Positions 1-9,552 of a stretch of DNA of 12,751 nucleotides are shown here, piece after piece. Position 1 is the first letter of the stretch. Each line of letters begins with the position of its first letter. Below the pieces are notes generated by a model. The model was not told the DNA's origin and ran no database searches. It was given only the letters and a program-made list of their open reading frames with translations. Source of the stretch: a virus (Duplodnaviria > Heunggongvirae > Uroviricota > Caudoviricetes); IMG/VR virus record IMGVR_UViG_2778261068_000001, positions 1 through 12,751 of that record. One strand, 5' to 3'. The position numbers and the translations under genes are program-made.

Positions 1-448
1 TCTCAGCATTTACTGCACTCTTTTCCGCCTGGCCGGCTGATATACCCGCATTCCTCGCTGACGTCTCTGCCTCTCCGGCATTCTTCTTCGCCTCCTCAGC
101 GTGACGCGCTGCCTCTTCCACCATCTGTTCAAAACGGCGCAGTGCCTCCGGCCGGGCATCCTCCTCCGTCATGGCACCGAGAAAATCATTCAGCGTACCC
201 GGCTGAGAATCTTCATACACGGTGATGGTCCCGGCATGTGACGGCGGGAATCCCTCCACCAACAGAATGACGCTGTACTGACCGTACTCAACGTCCATTG
301 TGTAACGCCCGGCTTCATCCGGGTTTTCTGAAGCCACCGTGTTCACCACCACCGTGATGCTGTTGCGCCTGGCTTTCAGCTGAATGGTGCAGTTCTGTAT
401 TGGTTTTCCCGCACCATCTTTCAGTACACCTGAAATCTGTACTGCCAT
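1..448 (-). CDS. stf: Side tail fibre protein, N-terminal 149 codons only (gene continues past the window edge)
   Basis: Hand translation from the ATG at 448-446 gives MAVQISGVLKDGAGKPIQNCTIQLKARRNSITVVVNTVASENPDEAGRYTMDVEYGQYSVILLVEGFPPSHAGTITVYEDSQPGTLNDFL..., which matches my recollection of the conserved N-terminus of lambda Stf (MAVKISGVLKDGTGKP...). GGAG lies 5 nt upstream of the ATG (plus-strand CTCC at 454-457). No stop codon before position 1. Not in the ORF track because it is truncated. Confidence 0.85.
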   Translation of the reverse strand, partial: MAVQISGVLKDGAGKPIQNCTIQLKARRNSITVVVNTVASENPDEAGRYTMDVEYGQYSVILLVEGFPPSHAGTITVYEDSQPGTLNDFLGAMTEEDARPEALRRFEQMVEEAARHAEEAKKNAGEAETSARNAGISAGQAEKSAVNAE

Positions 449-463
449 ACTCACTCCACAAAT

Positions 464-487
464 AAAAAAGGCGCCATTTCTGGCGCC
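464..487 (-). terminator. Intrinsic terminator-like hairpin between J and stf
   Basis: Plus strand AAAAAA(464-469) GGCGCC(470-475) ATTTCT GGCGCC(482-487). On the minus strand this reads GGCGCC-AGAAAT-GGCGCC followed by TTTTTTATTT, beginning 23 nt after the J stop codon (510-512). Confidence 0.6.
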
Positions 488-509
488 CGTTATTAGGGTT
501 ATAAATATT

Positions 510-3500
510 TCAACGGATACTGATGCCGGAAGCCGCTTTTTTGGTCACAATCACCGTACAGTCGGTGATATTGCCTGCCCCCTGATTGCCTTTCTGGAAA
601 ATCTTAAACTCCAGAGTGACGCTTCCCCTGCCACCCGGCATATCAATAACCGCACTGTAACTACCGGGAATGGCCCCTTTAGTTTCTCTGGATGCGATTA
701 ATACGCCGTTTTTGCGAACTTCAAATCCATAACCCGTGTACCTTGTACCTCCCGGGTTATTACCACTTCCCGGATCGGTATACGCTATACCGTTAAAGAT
801 AATGGGCGGGATAATAATCTGACGGTCAAAGTTATGATCATCGCTGATGGTGACGGTAACCGTCCCGTCTGGCGTTTCCGTGTTACCCCACGTACCGACT
901 TTTTTCGGGAAGGCTTTTGATACAGCTTTAACGAAATCCCCTCTGACCTGGGTCGCCTCCAGCATGCCCTTAATCGTACAGTTCTCACTTATCGTGACAT
1001 TGTTGAGCGTTCCTGAGTTCGCATTCACGTTACCGCTGATATCAGCGTTTTTCGCCGTCAGCCGCCCGTCCGGTGTCAGGGAAAATGCCGGAGGATTGCC
1101 GCCGCTGGTGATGGTCGGGGCCGTCAGGCGTTTCAGGAACACGTCGTTCATGAATATCTGATCGCCCTGACCAACAAACATTGGTCGTGTGTTGCCATTA
1201 GACGGATCAATAAACGCGATACGGTTAGCGGCAACCAGAAACTGGCTCAGTTTGCCTTCCTCTGTATCCTCCATGCTGAGGCCAATACCCGCGACATAAT
1301 GCTTACCGTCTTTGGTCTGCTCAATTTTGACGCCCCACATGGCGTTCCATTTATCGTTAGCGTCCTTCCACTCTTTCGAAAACTCCTCCAGTCTGCTGGC
1401 GTTATCTTCCGTCAGCTCGACTTTTTCCAGCAGCTCCTTGCCGAGATGGGATTCGGTTATCTGGCCTTTGAAAAAATCCAGGTAACCTTCCGCATCATCG
1501 CTCGCCTGACCGACAGCCTCCACGAATGCCGATTTGCCAACGGTGTTCACGCTGCGGATATAAAAGTAATAATCATGGCCCGGTTTGATATTGCTACTGC
1601 CGGCTATCCAGTACAGCGCCGTACCAAGATAACGCGCGCTGGTTTCAACCTGCCTGATATCGGCAATCCGCTTTTCCGAGAACCAGAACTCAAACTGCAC
1701 CGTCGGGTCATATACAGCCAGTTTCGGGACCGCCGTTATCTGAAAATACCCCGGTATCAGTTCAATAGTGACAGGCGCTGCAGGTGCGGCAATCCTGAAC
1801 GATACCGACGCCGGGTCGCCCTGCTGTCCCCACGCATTTACCGCCCGGACTGTCAGCCTGTAGTTCCCTGGCGCCAGTTGCCTGAAGCGGTATGTGGTTT
1901 CCGTCGTCCGGGCCGTGCTGACCAGCCGCTCACTGCCGTCGTCTGCTGCCACAGTCAGGCGAAGCATAAAGCTCACCCCCTTCACCACCTTCGGCGTGTC
2001 CCAGCGGGCCAGCACCTGATACTCCCCGCTGTCTGCCGAGACTTCGGCGGTCAGGTGCTGCACTGCTGGCGGCGTGACACCATTCACCGTGCCGCTCTGG
2101 TCGCCGTCAAAGTGCGCCCCGTTATCCACGATGGCCTCTTTCTCCGGCACATGCTGCACGGCGGTGATGGCATACGTGCCGTCGTCGTTCTCACGGATAC
2201 TCACGCAGCGGAACAGGCGCTGGCGCAGCGTCGGCAGCTTCAGCCCCCACACGCTGTATCCGGCAACGCCGTCAGGGATACGGTTCACTTTCACCTGCAC
2301 GCCGTCGGTGACGGACTGGACCTCCACGCTGACCGGATTGCCACTTCCGTCAACCAGGCTTATCAGCGTGGTACCGGAGGATGGCAGCGTGATTTCACGG
2401 TCGAGCGTCAGCGTCCGGGTCTGGCTGTTCACCGCCAGTACGCGCCCGCCGGTGCTGATACCGGCATAGTCATCATCGCAGATTTCAATAACATCACCCG
2501 GCACATGGCGAAGCCCTTCTGCACCCACGCTGAAGTCCACGGTCTGCGTTTCCAGCAGTTCCGTTTTAATCAGCCACAGCCCGGCTCGGTGTGCCTGCCC
2601 CCGGCTGGTACAGCCAAAGGCATCCATCTTCGTGACGTTACGACCGTAACGGGCAATGGCCTGCGTGTCCTCCACAAGCTCTGTTGCCGTCTCCCAGCCG
2701 TTGTTCGGGTCAATCCAGTTCACCTCAACGGCATTATGGCGGTCCTTCAGGGCGCTGAAGCTGTAGCGGAACGGCGCGCCATCATCCGGCATCACCACAT
2801 TACTGCGGTTATAGGTCCACACCTTATCCGACGGCCGGTCCTGCACGAACGTCAGCGTCTGCCCGTTCCATACCGGCATACAGCGCATCGCCGAGCAGAA
2901 ATCACTGAGCACATCCCACGCCTTACGTTGTGTGGTCAGGTAAGCGTTACAGGTGATGCGCGGCTCCGTACCGCCAGAGCCGTCCGGCACCGACTGGTCG
3001 CAATTCTGGCCGATGACATACAGCGCCCATTTGTCCACATCCGCCGCACCGAGACGTTTCCCCATGCCGTAGCGCGGGTGGGTCAGCATATCCCACAGAC
3101 ACCATGCCATGTTGTTGCTGTATGCCGGTTTAAACGTCCCGTCCCAGATACCGCTGTATTGCCGCGTCTGCGGGTTATAATTCGACGGCACCTGCAGAAT
3201 ACGCCCGCGAAGATGATAATTACGGCTCACCTGCTGGCTGCCGAACTGCTCCGAATCCACCTGCACGCCGACCAGTGCCGTGTTCGGGTAGCACTGTTTC
3301 ACATCGATGATTTCGGTGTATGACGACCAGAGCGTTTTGTTCTGCAGCTGGTCTGTGGTGCTGTCCGGCGTCATCCTGCGCATCCGGATATTGAACGGTC
3401 GCGGCGGCAGGTTATCCACCACCACCGAGGCCAGATACTGCGAGGTGGTTTTGCCCTTAATGGTGATGTCTTTTTCCGTCACCCAGCCACCATTACGTTG

Positions 3501-3923
3501 TATCTGAACCAGCAGGCGAACTTCCGACGGATTCCGGTCCCCCTTTGAAGTGGTTTCCACCAGTGCCTGCACACCGAAGGTCAGGCGCAGACGGTCGATG
3601 TTTGCCGACGTGATGGTCCGGGTGAGCGGATTGTCATATTTTAATTCTGCACCGATAACGGTTTCTGAACCGGAGGATTCAAATCCCTCCGGAGGTGTCT
3701 GCTCCTGCTCACCTGCCCGGAACACCACCGTGACACCGGAGATATTGGTATTCCCCTCACTGTCCAGCACCGGCGTACTGTTCAGCAGCACACTTTTTAA
3801 TCCGTCCACCGGACCTTCAATCGGCCCTTCACTGATGGCGTCTATCACGCTCAGCAGCTGGGATGATTTCAGGTTGTCCTTCGCTTCGCGCGGGGTATGC
3901 CCCTTACTGCTGCCTTTACCCAT
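510..3923 (-). CDS. J: Central tail fibre / host specificity protein J (1137 aa)
   Basis: N-terminus [20 protein letters not shown]... and most of the length match lambda gpJ (about 1130 aa) from memory. Correct position at the end of the M-L-K-I-J tail tip block. The last ~150 aa diverge from lambda. GAGGA sits directly against the ATG. Confidence 0.95.
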
Positions 3924-3937
3924 TCCTCACGCTCCAG

Positions 3938-3964
3938 AAACGACAAAACCGCCCTGAGGCGGTT
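3938..3964 (-). terminator. Terminator-like hairpin between I and J
   Basis: Minus strand AACCGCC-TCAG-GGCGGTT (plus 3947-3964) followed by TTTTGTCGTTTC. Lies between the I stop (3984-3986) and the J start (3923). Confidence 0.45.
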
Positions 3965-3983
3965 TCACACAAAACATTTTGCA

Positions 3984-4631
3984 TCAGCGACCAATCACCA
4001 CAACCTGACCACCGTCCCCCTCGTCTGCCGTGCTGATCTCCTGAGAGACAACACGTGACCCCACGCGCATTTCACCGTACAGAACAGGCAGAACATTGCC
4101 CTGGGCAACCATATTGTCCAGTGACGAGAAATATGTGTTCTGCTTACCGTTATCCGTTGTTTGTGTGCGGGGAGTTCTGGGTTTAGGGGCCAGCATCTGC
4201 GCCACACCACCCAGGATCATACTGGCCCCTGCCGCATACATGCCCGATAAAGCCGCGGCACCCAACCAACCTGCGGGGTTCCACCATGCCACCGCAATCA
4301 GCGCCGCCCCCAGCACGGCCTGAAAAAGACCGCCACTTTTGGCTCCCGCCAGACGCGGCACAATGTGGATTACGGCACCATTTGCCAGCGGTTCATTAAG
4401 ACGGGCTGATAATTCAGTTTCACCTGTATCACGCCCGGCAATGCGTACCTGATACCAGCCGTCGCTCAGTTTCTGACGAAACGCCGGAAGCTGTGTGGTC
4501 AGCGCCCGGATGGCTTCAGCCCCCGTTTTCACACGAAGGTCGATGCGGCGGCCAAATCGTTGTAAATCCCCGTAAAGGCAGATGCGTGCCATGCCCGGTG
4601 ACGCCAGAAGGAGTGTGTGCGTCGCTGCCAT
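3984..4631 (-). CDS. I: Tail tip assembly protein I (215 aa)
   Basis: MAATHTLLLASPGMARICLYGDLQRFGRRIDLRVKTGAEAIRAL... and the C-terminus ...QTTDNGKQNTYFSSLDNMVAQGNVLPVLYGEMRVGSRVVSQEISTADEGDGGQVVVIGR match lambda gpI from memory. Overlaps the 3' end of K by 103 nt, as in lambda. Confidence 0.9.
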   Translation of the reverse strand: MAATHTLLLASPGMARICLYGDLQRFGRRIDLRVKTGAEAIRALTTQLPAFRQKLSDGWYQVRIAGRDTGETELSARLNEPLANGAVIHIVPRLAGAKSGGLFQAVLGAALIAVAWWNPAGWLGAAALSGMYAAGASMILGGVAQMLAPKPRTPRTQTTDNGKQNTYFSSLDNMVAQGNVLPVLYGEMRVGSRVVSQEISTADEGDGGQVVVIGR

Positions 4632-5272
4632 TTGTCGGTATACCTCTCTCGTTTGCTCAGTTGTTCAGGAATATGGTGCAGCAGCTCGCCGTCACCACAG
4701 TAAATGGCGGCATGATTCGGCACAGATGAACCAAAACAGCACAGCAGCACATCGCCCGGCTGCACCGCTGACAACGGTACCTGATACAGCCCTGTGGCCT
4801 CCAGATTATCCAGATAGAGATTCTGACCGTTACGCCACCAGTCATCCCCGCGGTGAAAATCCGGCATCTCAATTCCCGCCAGATGGTAAGCGTCCCGGAA
4901 CAGCGTGTAACAGTCCGTCACCCCGTGTTCAAAGCGCCGCCCGGTAAGATGTGGCACACAGCGGAACTTGTGAATCTCACCCCGGCAGACCAGCCACCAC
5001 GGCAAATCACTCTGCACCTGCAGCCGCCGGTCAGCCTCACTCAGCCAGGGCAGACCACCGGGGTGGCTGTGGACCAGCGCCACAATCTCACCCTGCATTT
5101 CTGCCTGCAGCCAGTCCTCCGGCGACAGCCTGAAATAATCCTCCGGCTCACCGGAGATATTCACGCAGGGAAAATATCTTTCCCCCTCCGGTGTTCTTAC
5201 CACGAAGCCGCACGACTCCGCTGGCGCACATCGCCGGGCGTGCGCCAGAATCGCTGATTCTGTTTCTGTCAT
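4529..5272 (-). CDS. K: Tail tip assembly protein K (247 aa) with MPN/JAMM and NlpC/P60 motifs
   Basis: Start taken at the ATG at 5272-5270 (MTETESAILAHARRCAPAESCGFVV...), 2 nt after the L stop codon. JAMM motif HxHx7Sx2D is present as HSHPGGLPWLSEAD. The C-terminal half carries a Cys (GVTDCYTLF) and a His (VPNHAAIY) consistent with an NlpC/P60 fold. The ORF track's extension to 5347 overlaps L and has no support. Confidence 0.85.
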   Translation of the reverse strand: MTETESAILAHARRCAPAESCGFVVRTPEGERYFPCVNISGEPEDYFRLSPEDWLQAEMQGEIVALVHSHPGGLPWLSEADRRLQVQSDLPWWLVCRGEIHKFRCVPHLTGRRFEHGVTDCYTLFRDAYHLAGIEMPDFHRGDDWWRNGQNLYLDNLEATGLYQVPLSAVQPGDVLLCCFGSSVPNHAAIYCGDGELLHHIPEQLSKRERYTDKWQRRTHSFWRHRAWHASAFTGIYNDLAAASTFV

Positions 5273-5276
5273 GGGT

Positions 5277-5975
5277 TTACTGCGAAAGTTTGTTGATGGA
5301 AAGGTAGCCGCCAAAGTTACCGAGGTTATTGCGAAACTTACAGCCACTCAGGCATTTGCTGCATTTATCCTTCGTGATATCGGACGTCGGCTGGTCATAT
5401 TCATCCGCGACAGCCGGACCGTTATAACCGCACTCATCACCGCGATAGGTCCAGGTGCAGGTGTTGGCCAGCATGATACGTCCCGGAAAAACAGCGCCAT
5501 CCGTTTCCGTCGGCGTGGACAGTACAAAGGAGGCACTCACCGCGCTCAGTTCGCTGCACTGCTCGATGCGCCAGCGGCTGATCACCTCCTGCTCCGGGTC
5601 TGCCTCGATGTTTCCGTTGACGAAGTTCACCGCATCCAGAAAACGGGCGTAAACCTTACGCCGAACCACCGTTCCGCCGACCAGACTCTGCATATCTTCC
5701 ACCATCCCGGTGACCATGCCGTGCAGATTAGAGACTTTCAGAGTTGGCCTGGCGCTGGCTCCTTTACCGTTCATCTCAAATCCGCTCCCCTGAATGGGGT
5801 ACGCCTGATACTGTCGCCCCTGCCAGGTGACCGGCTCACCTTTTTCGTTCTGCTCATTACAGAAAAAATAACGCTCTCCGCCGACTTCTGTCAGATCGAC
5901 TTCCCAGAGCACGACCAGCGCGGATTGCTCCGCTTTTGTACACTCATTCAGTGTTTCCTGCTGTATATCCTGCAT
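5277..5975 (-). CDS. L: Tail tip protein L (232 aa)
   Basis: MQDIQQETLNECTKAEQSALVVLWEVDLTEVGGERYFFCNEQNEKGEPVTWQGRQYQAYPIQGSGFEMNGKG... matches lambda gpL in sequence and in length. Has the C-terminal cysteine cluster (C..C...CSKCLSGC). Its ATG overlaps the M stop codon (ATGA). Confidence 0.9.
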   Translation of the reverse strand: MQDIQQETLNECTKAEQSALVVLWEVDLTEVGGERYFFCNEQNEKGEPVTWQGRQYQAYPIQGSGFEMNGKGASARPTLKVSNLHGMVTGMVEDMQSLVGGTVVRRKVYARFLDAVNFVNGNIEADPEQEVISRWRIEQCSELSAVSASFVLSTPTETDGAVFPGRIMLANTCTWTYRGDECGYNGPAVADEYDQPTSDITKDKCSKCLSGCKFRNNLGNFGGYLSINKLSQ

Positions 5976-6316
5976 CAGTGAGTGACCTCTTCAAAGGTAC
6001 AGTTAAAATCGGTATACATGGCATTATCCGAAATACTCCACTCCCTGCAGACAACCCGGACGGTTCTGTTGTGTTTTGGCGGACGCCACAAAAAAGCACG
6101 TATCCCGGCATGACGGGATAAAAAACTGTCCAGCGCAGCACGGGAATATTCATCTGTGACACGAAACACCGGTTTAAACGTTTTCAGATCCGCATTCAGA
6201 CCACCAGCCCGTCGCTGTTCATATCCGTCACCGAACTTTACCGTAATAACAGATGGCTTTCGTGTCGTCTCCATCCCCTCGCGGGGGATCCAGTTAAAAA
6301 CTTCAGGCTCAGGCAC
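5975..6316 (-). CDS. M: Tail tip protein M (113 aa from a GTG start)
   Basis: FGDGYEQRRAGGLNADLKTF...FLWRPPKHNRTVRVVCREWS resembles lambda gpM. I prefer the GTG start at 6316-6314 because GGAGGA lies 8 nt upstream and the resulting length matches lambda M. The track's TTG start at 6373 overlaps H by 65 nt. The alternative ATG at 6274 would give 99 aa. Confidence 0.75.
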   Translation of the reverse strand: MPEPEVFNWIPREGMETTRKPSVITVKFGDGYEQRRAGGLNADLKTFKPVFRVTDEYSRAALDSFLSRHAGIRAFLWRPPKHNRTVRVVCREWSISDNAMYTDFNCTFEEVTH

Positions 6317-9300
6317 TGTATAATCCTCCGTCCCGACGTGATGACTGCATAATTGACACAACCCTGCTGTCAATCAGATCCGCCAGCCCCCTGGCTGACT
6401 GCGTATCTATCTCGCCATTGCTCCCTTTATTCTGAATACTGATGTGATACACAGGAGAATAGACAAATCCGCCGCCACCATTCACATTGCCAATGGCTCT
6501 GACCCCAAGAGAGCCGTCCGCTGCCCGCGTCAGTGGCATGATAGCTTCAGGCCCGGCCTCGCCCATCAGTCCGGCACCTTTCGCAAAAGCAAAATACGTC
6601 GGCGTATCCACAATGGTGTTACTGTAAGCACTCAGATTTGCCGATGTGTAAACACCACCTTTTGCGTTTGCCACTGCCCCCGAAATCCATCCGCCTACCG
6701 TACCAAACCACCCTCCGGCGCCGGAGAGTGATTTCAGTCCGTTAACAATGGCCGCATTCATCAGAATTTTTGAAACTTCCTGGAGAACTGAACTCCCCCA
6801 GTTCCTCCAGTCCACAACATTCCCGGCCAGTGCATCGGAAATATTTGATACCAGCCCGTCCATGGTGGAAACGACAGCATCTGCCGCCAGTGAAGCATAA
6901 TCGGTGGCGCTGTCTGCCCAGTTGGTCAGTCCCTCCTGGAGTCCGGCATTCCAGTTATTACGTAAAGCATCGGCCTTTGCATAATAATCCTGCTGATCGC
7001 TGAGACGCTCTTCCAGATATTTTTTATTCAGTTCTTTCTCCTGTTTCCACAGGGCTTCTTCAATTTCTCCGGTCTGATACTGCCTCAGGAGTTCGTTATT
7101 TTTCTGCTCAAATGCCTGCCGGATACTCCACATTTCCTGGAGTCGTTCACGCATCCGTGAGCCTTCACCATATCCCAGCAACTGCGCATCGTTAGACGCC
7201 CGGGCACTGGCATTACTGTCCGCCAGGCTGCTTTCATAAGCAGCAAGCTGCTCACGAATCTTTTTCTGGTCAATGAGTGCCGCATTCTGTAAAAGCGTTT
7301 TTTTCTGCGCTTCTGACAGAGTTGATAATTCGCCCTGACTGATCTGATACTTCATCCTGGCCAGTTCAGTATTCTGCCCTGCCAGTGCTATTTGTTCTTT
7401 TTGCTGTTTAATCAGCCGTTTATAAATATCTTCTGTTTTTTCCGCTTCGGTCTTTTTATGTGTTTTAGGTTTATTTGCCTGGTTATTTCGCCAGGCATCC
7501 AGTGAGTTATTGATATAATTCTGTCTGGCTGCCTGATACGCCTCTCCCACAAAGCCGAGATCATCCGCAGCATAACCCAGGCGGGCACGCTCACGGGCTT
7601 CCCCCTTCAGGCGGGACAGAGCCAGTTCACGCTCGCTATTATTCAGCGCAGTCTGCTGTTTATCATCCAGAATGGCCTGTGGCAGCCGTAATGGTACATT
7701 CACCAGCCCCTGACGCTGCTGAAGTAACTCATTACCAAGCCCGAGAAGACGATTAAACTCGGTATGCTGCCCATTCATGATCAACAGGGACTGATACGCT
7801 TTGTTTTGTTCTGCCGCCTGTTGACGGATTAACGCCACCCGTCGCTCCTCCAGCCCGGCAAGCACATCCTGAATGGATTGCGCTTTGCCCTGCATTTGAG
7901 TGAGGCGAGACTGTTCAACTGCCAGTTGATTTGTTGCTTCTGCAAGCCCTTCTGTGACAGTTTTTACCGACGTCATGTGGTTAATCATAAAACCGTTATC
8001 GGTTGTCCAGCCCGGGTTTGCCAGCACATACTGATAGCCAGCAATTTTTTCCTGTAAGGATTTAATCTTACTTTTCTGCTCGTCAATTAACCTGTTCTGC
8101 TCCTTCAGTGCCTGCCGCGTCTTTTCTTCATTATCTGACGTTTCAGGAAGCGACATTGCCGACGTTTTCTGGCGAATTTCGTCGATTGTTGCGGCATACT
8201 GGCGTGCAGATTCTCTGGCCTGCTCCTGATTCTGATACATCGTGTACCAGGCCGTCGCTCCCAGCATGACGAGCCCCGGCACACCACCAACCAGCCCCAG
8301 CGCACCACTTAACAGACGACTCCCCACTGACGTGACAGTATTCAGTGTTGTCTGTGCTGCTGTTCTGGCCGCAATATTACGGGTAAGTGACGCCTGGGCA
8401 ACTGTCAGCTTCGCTTCTGCGGCTGCCTGCCTTTCGGTACCGCGAGCAGCAACAACCGCCTGTTGCGCACGATAAACCGCCGCACGCGCCCTGGCGGTTG
8501 CTATCTGTGTCCCCCGAAGTTGCGCTTCCGCAAGAGCCACTTCGTTTCTGGCTGCAGTAATTAATCCGGCAGTTGCAGATCCTGCAGAAGACGCCATATT
8601 GCCAAAATATCGGGCTACCCCGACGGCAACCAGAGCACCGGCAGCGGTTGCCACGGTGTCAATATTGCCTGCAATACCATTCAGCACACCGGAGAGCGTC
8701 TTCGTCACTCCGCTTGCCTCGTTCGCACCACCAACCCAGGCCATAAAGGCGTTTTCAACTTTGGTTGCAGAGGATGAAACCGTATCAGGCATTGCCGCAT
8801 ATTCATCACGTAATGCCCCAAGCTGACTAATCAGTGCAGGAACAACCTTATCGGCGGTCAGTTTTCCGTTATCCGCCATGGCCTTCAGATCCTTACGGGC
8901 AACACCCATTCCCGCAGCCAGCGCACGAATAACACGATCGCCGTTCTCATTCACCGAGTTAAACTCTTCACCGCGCAGCACTCCCTGCGCCAGTGCCTGA
9001 CTGAACTGCGTGATCACCGAACTGGCTTCTGCTGTACTGGCACCGGATAATTTCAGCCCCGTGGAGATCGCCTCGGTGACTTTCAGTACCTCCTCAGAAC
9101 TGTAACCATACTCCCGCATGGAAGCTGCAGAGCGGGCAAAAAGGCTGGCGTTATCAGAAAACGCCGTTCCCGTTCTCTGGCTGATTGCCATTAATTCACG
9201 TTGTGATACCTGAAAATCATCACTGGACTTTGAAGCCTGCTTCAGACGGGCATTTACTGAATTCCACTCATCGGCGAGAGAAATAAGATGACCGGTAGCA

Positions 9301-9542
9301 AAAGCTCCGGCAAATGCCCCCGCCATATTCAGTGCCGAAGATTTAGCTGTATTTATCTGATCCGTCACTTCTGCCAGTGCACGCCGCATTTCACGGGATG
9401 CAGCAGCGGACTGCCGGCCTCCGTTCTGCATGGTACGGTAGTAATCCTGCCCCATACGCGAAGCCCGGGAGATCTCTGACTGGAATGACCGGGAATTTGC
9501 CGAGATTTTAATAATCAGTTCACGTAATGTCGCCACACTCAT
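6309..9542 (-). CDS. H: Tail tape measure protein, gpH-like (1077 aa)
   Basis: Correct position between G-T and M. The C-terminus (...YSNTIVDTPTYFAFAKGAGLMGEAGPEAIMPLTRAADGS...) resembles lambda gpH. Has a long Ala/Gln/Glu/Lys-rich coiled-coil middle and a Gly-rich hydrophobic segment (LLSGALGLVGGVPGLVMLGATAWY). The only in-frame start is the ATG at 9542, because an in-frame stop lies 11 codons upstream. Confidence 0.9.
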   Translation of the reverse strand: MSVATLRELIIKISANSRSFQSEISRASRMGQDYYRTMQNGGRQSAAASREMRRALAEVTDQINTAKSSALNMAGAFAGAFATGHLISLADEWNSVNARLKQASKSSDDFQVSQRELMAISQRTGTAFSDNASLFARSAASMREYGYSSEEVLKVTEAISTGLKLSGASTAEASSVITQFSQALAQGVLRGEEFNSVNENGDRVIRALAAGMGVARKDLKAMADNGKLTADKVVPALISQLGALRDEYAAMPDTVSSSATKVENAFMAWVGGANEASGVTKTLSGVLNGIAGNIDTVATAAGALVAVGVARYFGNMASSAGSATAGLITAARNEVALAEAQLRGTQIATARARAAVYRAQQAVVAARGTERQAAAEAKLTVAQASLTRNIAARTAAQTTLNTVTSVGSRLLSGALGLVGGVPGLVMLGATAWYTMYQNQEQARESARQYAATIDEIRQKTSAMSLPETSDNEEKTRQALKEQNRLIDEQKSKIKSLQEKIAGYQYVLANPGWTTDNGFMINHMTSVKTVTEGLAEATNQLAVEQSRLTQMQGKAQSIQDVLAGLEERRVALIRQQAAEQNKAYQSLLIMNGQHTEFNRLLGLGNELLQQRQGLVNVPLRLPQAILDDKQQTALNNSERELALSRLKGEARERARLGYAADDLGFVGEAYQAARQNYINNSLDAWRNNQANKPKTHKKTEAEKTEDIYKRLIKQQKEQIALAGQNTELARMKYQISQGELSTLSEAQKKTLLQNAALIDQKKIREQLAAYESSLADSNASARASNDAQLLGYGEGSRMRERLQEMWSIRQAFEQKNNELLRQYQTGEIEEALWKQEKELNKKYLEERLSDQQDYYAKADALRNNWNAGLQEGLTNWADSATDYASLAADAVVSTMDGLVSNISDALAGNVVDWRNWGSSVLQEVSKILMNAAIVNGLKSLSGAGGWFGTVGGWISGAVANAKGGVYTSANLSAYSNTIVDTPTYFAFAKGAGLMGEAGPEAIMPLTRAADGSLGVRAIGNVNGGGGFVYSPVYHISIQNKGSNGEIDTQSARGLADLIDSRVVSIMQSSRRDGGLYSA

Positions 9543-9552
9543 TCTCCGGACG

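Follow-up and report, generated by a model that had tools for sequence, protein, structure and literature searches.

The whole stretch of DNA analyzed here, 12,751 nucleotides long and hereafter called the window, was found to be the exact reverse-complement of a part of chromosome AP014856.1, which belongs to Escherichia albertii strain CB9786 (PMC13101514). This chromosome also encodes a protein identical to the product of gene J in the window, and the window is a part of an E. albertii CB9786 prophage. The features on which the following analysis is built are listed below, with the last line referring to the AP014856.1 locus outside the window.

1..448, minus strand: N-terminal 149 amino acids of the side tail fibre gene stf, which leaves the window (Pfam phage_tail_N, E 4.7e-69; 90.5% nucleotide identity to 434 stf)
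459..488, minus strand: intrinsic terminator after J, with an 8-bp stem, 6 G-C pairs and a T-run (terminator scan), part of the 434-like segment
510..3923, minus strand: gene J, tail tip attachment or central tail fibre protein, an intact ORF of 1137 amino acids (ORF list and translation)
510..968, minus strand: 434-type receptor-binding cassette of J (aa 986-1137 plus the stop codon; 36.7% identity to lambda and 96.1% to 434)
516..923, minus strand: PF12421 Ig_GpJ_C (aa 1001-1136), an Ig-like beta-sandwich with four variable loops (88.7 bits, cutoff 26.2)
969..3923, minus strand: lambda-like J body (aa 1-985) with hub, FNIII/Ig domains, helical shaft and beta-prism stalk (95.1% amino acid identity to lambda J)
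3984..5975, minus strand: tail-tip genes I, K and L (Pfam Lambda_tail_I, Prok-JAB+NLPC_P60 and Phage_tail_L)
15172-15798 and 16025-23414, AP014856.1 locus: NleG-family effector and host-gene region

The J protein of the window carries the Pfam domains FNIII-A_GpJ, Phage-tail_3, Ig_J, Ig_J_second, Phage_Tail_Tip and Ig_GpJ_C (PF24801, PF13550, PF24421, PF24489, PF09327 and PF12421), every one far above its cutoff. The gene is preceded by M, L, K and I and followed by the side tail fibre gene, as judged from the Pfam matches of the neighbours and the gene calls of AP014856.1. By this complete hub-to-tip domain set and its operon position, the protein belongs to the lambda gpJ family. The I, K and L genes form with J a lambda/434-like block, which blastn aligned at ~91% to both phages and which ends at window position 5995. 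Upstream of L (window 5995-12751), no nucleotide similarity to lambda or 434 was detected by blastn. In that part, the tape measure protein, of 1075-1077 aa compared with 853 aa in lambda, contains an HK97 TLTM domain, and the head-tail genes are HK97-like as well (Phage_connect_1, HCP and HK97-gp10_like). The HK97-like genes, together with the missing lambda/434 similarity upstream of L, therefore point to a mosaic phage with a joint near the M/L boundary; judged from its sequence, the phage combines a lambda/434-like tip with a shaft of the HK97 type. The slippery site GGGAAAG of the lambda-type G/T frameshift was absent from the G/T region of the window, and since this region is HK97-like, the absence says nothing about integrity.

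On the downstream side of J, stf follows directly at window 449-509 without a lom/ail outer-membrane protein gene, in contrast to lambda and 434, both of which have lom/ail between J and stf; the prophage of E. coli EPSSH018 lacks lom, as the window does. Some other E. coli relatives have an insertion of ~690 bp between J and stf. The terminator after J aligns with the annotated terminator of 434 and not with that of lambda, and its stem at window 469-488 reads GCGCC/GGCGC against GCACC/GGTGC in 434, a compensatory pair that keeps the hairpin. Beyond the window, AP014856.1 continues with the remainder of stf (437 aa in full), a tail fibre assembly gene, an NleG-family type III effector and then host genes, namely an alpha/beta hydrolase gene, omptin and hyaABC, with hya ~96% identical to that of E. 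coli.

To locate the change within J, the protein and its gene were aligned with J of lambda (NC_001416) and J of phage 434 (OL657226). Over aa 1-985, the window protein was 95.1% identical to lambda and 95.7% to 434, the two references being 97.7% identical to each other. Over aa 986-1137, the identity to lambda was 36.7% and that to 434 was 96.1% (146 of 152 residues), with 35.4% between lambda and 434; this tip aligned with 434 without a gap and with lambda only with four indels. In a running window of 15 aa, the matches to lambda fell from 13-15 to 7-8 between aa ~975 and ~985, and only 3-4 were left beyond aa ~1000. At the DNA level, the identity to lambda dropped from 0.80 to 0.50 across J nt 2941-3000 and then ranged from 0.3 to 0.7, which places the breakpoint at window ~954-985. 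In agreement with this, the lambda similarity found by blastn covered window 954-5995, while the 434 similarity extended to window 461, past the tip and the terminator, so that the terminator 3' of J switches to the 434 version together with the tip. In the alignment, lambda and 434 part from each other in those columns where the window parts from lambda (aa ~985, J nt 2941-3000), and the junction in the window is thus the known lambda/434 junction.

These alignments bear on most of what the initial annotation had proposed from the sequence alone. It had placed a replaced tip at 510-965, which proved right to within about 20 nt, as seen from both the drop in DNA identity and the blastn end at 954, and its description of ~990 lambda-like residues followed by a divergent stretch of ~150 aa agrees well with the two identity values against lambda given above. 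An identity of at least 80% to the C-terminus of lambda J, which it had named as speaking against a replacement, contrasts with the 36.7% found here, and the high identity to lambda J aa ~986-1132 that would mark a lambda-type LamB-binding tip was likewise absent (36.7%; 36.8% by tblastn). Its wording that the tip no longer resembles lambda was borne out as regards the sharp loss of identity and was overstated as regards kinship, because homology is still clear (tblastn 36.8%, E 1e-15; shared PF12421 domain).

Within the J body, three patches showed only 83-88% nucleotide identity to both lambda and 434, at window 3564-3683, 1644-1883 and 1044-1283 (J nt 241-360, 2041-2280 and 2641-2880); between lambda and 434, the identity in these patches is 91-97%. 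These patches look like lineage-specific local mosaic pieces.

The fold of the tip was examined by profile, sequence and structure comparisons. Residues 1001-1136 matched PF12421, [quoted passage not shown], with the score listed above. When the last 196 aa were compared with PDB sequences, full-length matches were obtained to the lambda gpJ entries 8XCJ/8XCK (E 4e-47) and, as the best match, to 9WCA, "A8 gpJ 713" (E 1.4e-53). An AlphaFold2 model based on a 17-sequence alignment was all beta, with a tip pLDDT of 78-94, in a monomer model of moderate overall quality (pLDDT 72.7, pTM 0.63, TMq about 0.6) in which the stalk was poorly modelled. The best Foldseek matches of this model in the PDB were the lambda gpJ and A8 gpJ tips (8XCJ, 8XCK, 9WCA and 9WCB; E 8e-17 to 4e-15), the last of these entries being the A8 gpJ tip complexed with OmpC of E. 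coli EDL933. An alignment of the tip types showed a kept framework (FP..GT.TV..DD..FDRQ..IP...F.G, NG..I, DMP.G.G..L.F and KK...GIS) interrupted by four hypervariable, indel-rich segments. According to a published description, the tip of lambda is an Ig-like domain whose four loops contact the receptor (PMC11101478). The four variable segments fit this arrangement and would correspond to L1-L4, and all four differ from lambda in sequence, with indels, so that, on this assignment, the lambda loops are not conserved in the window. No unrelated domain has come in; the window carries a diverged allele of the PF12421 Ig-like domain that lambda also has.

We then asked how widely this tip is distributed. 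The 456-nt tip segment was found in 74 phage records at 90-95% nucleotide identity; phage 434, mEp460, cdtI, phage 2851 and many Stx phages are among them. Of 5426 complete E. coli genomes, 2112 carry it (about 39%), the best match being 99.8% identical. The whole J gene aligns end to end at ~93% with those of 434 and lambda h434 imm21 (OM418627), and the latter, in which the classical h434 host-range allele has been sequenced (PMC9119081), has the same 3414-nt J type as the window. When the tip protein was compared by tblastn with 243 phage records, 74 were at least 90% identical and 169 less than 60% identical (lambda, 36.8%), with none between. A search of 5.8 billion proteins returned the same two tip classes, only from Escherichia or Shigella, and a 99%-identical cluster, P0001, with 1400 member sequences was named E. 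albertii. By its ungapped 96.1% identity and the same junction, the tip of the window is 434-type (h434). The allele itself is already known and extremely common: it has been familiar to geneticists for decades, it has been sequenced in 434, and its receptor has been published.

Among the systems compared, J of phage 434 (UMO75286.1, OL657226) is the closest, being alike in its length of 1137 aa, the lack of indels, the junction, the terminator and the stf type. Besides the lom/ail gene mentioned above, it differs by 48 J substitutions, 6 of them in the tip, and the window differs from it in its E. albertii host and in its genes upstream of L, which are HK97-like and not lambda/434-like. Lambda gpJ (NP_040600; 8IYK, 8XCK, and 8XCJ with LamB), whose receptor is LamB (PMC11101478), shares the six-domain architecture, the body, the Ig-like fold of the tip and its framework, but its tip is only 36.7% identical, with four loops that differ in sequence and length. 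A8 gpJ 713 (9WCA, closed; 9WCB, open with OmpC) also has a gpJ-family tip and is the best PDB sequence match, but it represents another tip type, with 47-51% identity including the conserved stalk, different loops and a shorter first loop; no paper on the 9WCA/9WCB structures was found in our literature search. The 434-type tip is further shared by mEp332, phiSTEC1575-Stx2k, mEp460, cdtI, 2851, long-tailed Stx phages and E. coli prophages such as that of EPSSH018, at 94-98% amino acid identity and up to 99.8% nucleotide identity, in J bodies and neighbourhoods that are patchworks. No receptor tests were found in the literature searched for these phages, phiSTEC1575-Stx2k and mEp332 included, or for the PhiR series.

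The bimodal identities without intermediates argue for discrete, exchangeable cassettes and not for gradual drift. Together with the sharp boundary and the 434-type tip, they support the view, already taken in the initial annotation, that the J tip is a host-range cassette swapped relative to lambda. A comparison with the prophage of EPSSH018, the closest E. coli relative, showed that J is a patchwork throughout, with a 600-nt block across the tip 100% identical, and such a pattern speaks for ongoing, frequent recombination. A clean identity jump at the tip boundary was also looked for in this comparison and was not found; the patchwork runs along the full J gene, and no single event is singled out.

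The base composition of J was examined as well, because the initial annotation had cited a GC contrast as a further sign of the swap. The quoted values were right (0.500 in the tip and 0.596 over J nt 1-2160), but the conclusion drawn from them was not sustained. Over J nt 1-2160, the GC content was 0.596 in the window, 0.592 in lambda and 0.594 in 434; over J nt 2161-2955, which are still 95% lambda-like, it was 0.518, 0.523 and 0.516; and in the tip, it was 0.500, 0.558 and 0.487, respectively. The step in the window thus lies at J nt ~2160 (z=3.8), and at the tip boundary the change from 0.518 to 0.500 was not significant (z=0.62). Because the step precedes the breakpoint by ~800 nt and is common to lambda and 434, GC content does not mark the swap, and it was rejected as a swap signature; the sole GC difference of the tip is that the 434-type lies about 6 points below the lambda tip.

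As for the receptor, phage 434 is known to use OmpC, and lambda carrying the 434 J binds OmpC instead of LamB (PMC3509688, PMC11101478). AlphaFold3 models published in 2025 dock the 434 tip trimer on trimeric OmpC, and the same study gives 35-40% pairwise identity for the tips of lambda, 434 and phi330 (PMC12502783), a range with which the identities to the lambda tip determined here agree. The window J is closest, at 96.1% over the tip, to that of 434, an OmpC user, and the earlier prediction of a receptor other than LamB is supported by this assignment; by analogy with 434, the receptor of the window J is probably OmpC and not LamB. Taken together, these data make it very probable that window 510..968 is the h434 allele, joined by homologous recombination to a lambda/434-like body and directed at OmpC instead of LamB, in a prophage of E. 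albertii CB9786. This variant would be expected to retain OmpC as its receptor, and the prophage presumably assembles functional tails.

By analogy with lambda, three J copies would form the central tail fibre, and their C-terminal Ig-like domains would make up a trimeric tip, the variable loops on its underside docking onto a trimeric outer-membrane porin, which for the 434 type would be OmpC rather than LamB. Porin binding would spread the three tip domains apart, the resulting twist would travel up the conserved stalk (beta-prism and helical shaft), and the tail tip would then open for DNA ejection. In lambda, triggering has been described as such a sequence of tip spreading on the porin, twist via the beta-prism and helical shaft, and tip opening (PMC11101478). 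Since the J stalk of the window is 95% identical to that of lambda, the lambda triggering mechanism is presumed here, and we infer from this likeness that the window J may form trimers and trigger ejection in the same manner.

Other readings of the locus were weighed against this one. The tip could be 434-type by descent and yet have its specificity shifted by its six substitutions relative to 434 (T1049D, G1097S, R1099G, I1108V, Q1110H and G1115R), the preferred receptor then being certain E. albertii OmpC alleles or a different porin (OmpF, for instance) instead of the OmpC of K-12. In the 434-type tips sampled, only 11 of 152 positions were variable. Several vary repeatedly, with three residues each, as at 1049 (T/D/S) and 1115 (G/R/W), and several of the variable positions, some of the six substitutions among them, lie within or adjacent to the inter-type hypervariable segments. 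In addition, the 99%-identical cluster P0001 bears the name of E. albertii, and a single J substitution can alter which porin lambda or phage 21 uses, a few mutations being enough to give these phages OmpC or OmpF use (PMC11336670). Against such a shift stand the 96.1% identity to 434, the equal loop lengths and the identity of the longest 434-specific loop (14 residues), as well as the E. coli strains that carry the same segment at 98-99.8% nucleotide identity, which means that the variant also occurs outside E. albertii. We consider a shift away from K-12 OmpC unlikely. There is a small chance, only slightly better, that the E. albertii tip variant is tuned to particular OmpC alleles or has gained a second porin; if this were so, the few variable sites of the 434-type tips would reflect a continuing arms race between the tip and an OmpC that is polymorphic across Escherichia species.

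It is similarly doubtful that J is the relic of a defective prophage, its tip being without current function. In attaching-effacing Escherichia, lambdoid prophages are in many cases defective, the prophage end carries NleG virulence cargo, and gene K of the related E. coli EPSSH018 prophage has an internal stop, all of which would fit such a relic. However, all tail genes of the window, from the head-tail connectors to stf, are intact ORFs with full-length Pfam matches, and J is full length and 96% conserved relative to that of a working phage. Finally, gradual divergence of the tip from the lambda type by point mutation and diversifying selection, without module exchange, would account for the homology of the tips (PF12421; 36.7%) and for a kept framework with change concentrated in the loops, but it is highly improbable, as some 60 nt are enough for the nucleotide identity to lambda to go from about 0.9 down to 0.3-0.5, the differences extend to framework positions and to the terminator after J, none of the 243 phage records lies at 60-90% identity, and the EPSSH018 comparison shows a patchwork with 600 identical nt over the tip.

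Under the preferred reading, that of an h434 allele on a lambda/434-like body, the value of the result lies in annotation, in that the prophage J can be labelled as 434/OmpC type rather than lambda/LamB type, a label that predicts which strains are infectable if the phage is active. The locus is a textbook case of host-range cassette exchange at a conserved stalk/tip junction, with the framework kept and four variable loops, and the h434-type J tip found here opens no new question.

Several minor observations were made in the window. The internal GC drop of J from ~0.60 to ~0.52 falls at window ~1760 (aa ~720), near the border of two Ig-like/FNIII domains, and may be a remnant of an earlier junction between modules. 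In the GC-rich part of J, an antisense ORF of 674 aa runs on the plus strand (window 1299-3323); it is most likely a by-product of the high GC3 of J (0.73) and not a gene. The major tail protein (window 10271-10975) has a C-terminal Ig-like domain, with Ig_2/Ig_3 matches at aa 154-233, as do many siphophage tail tube proteins.
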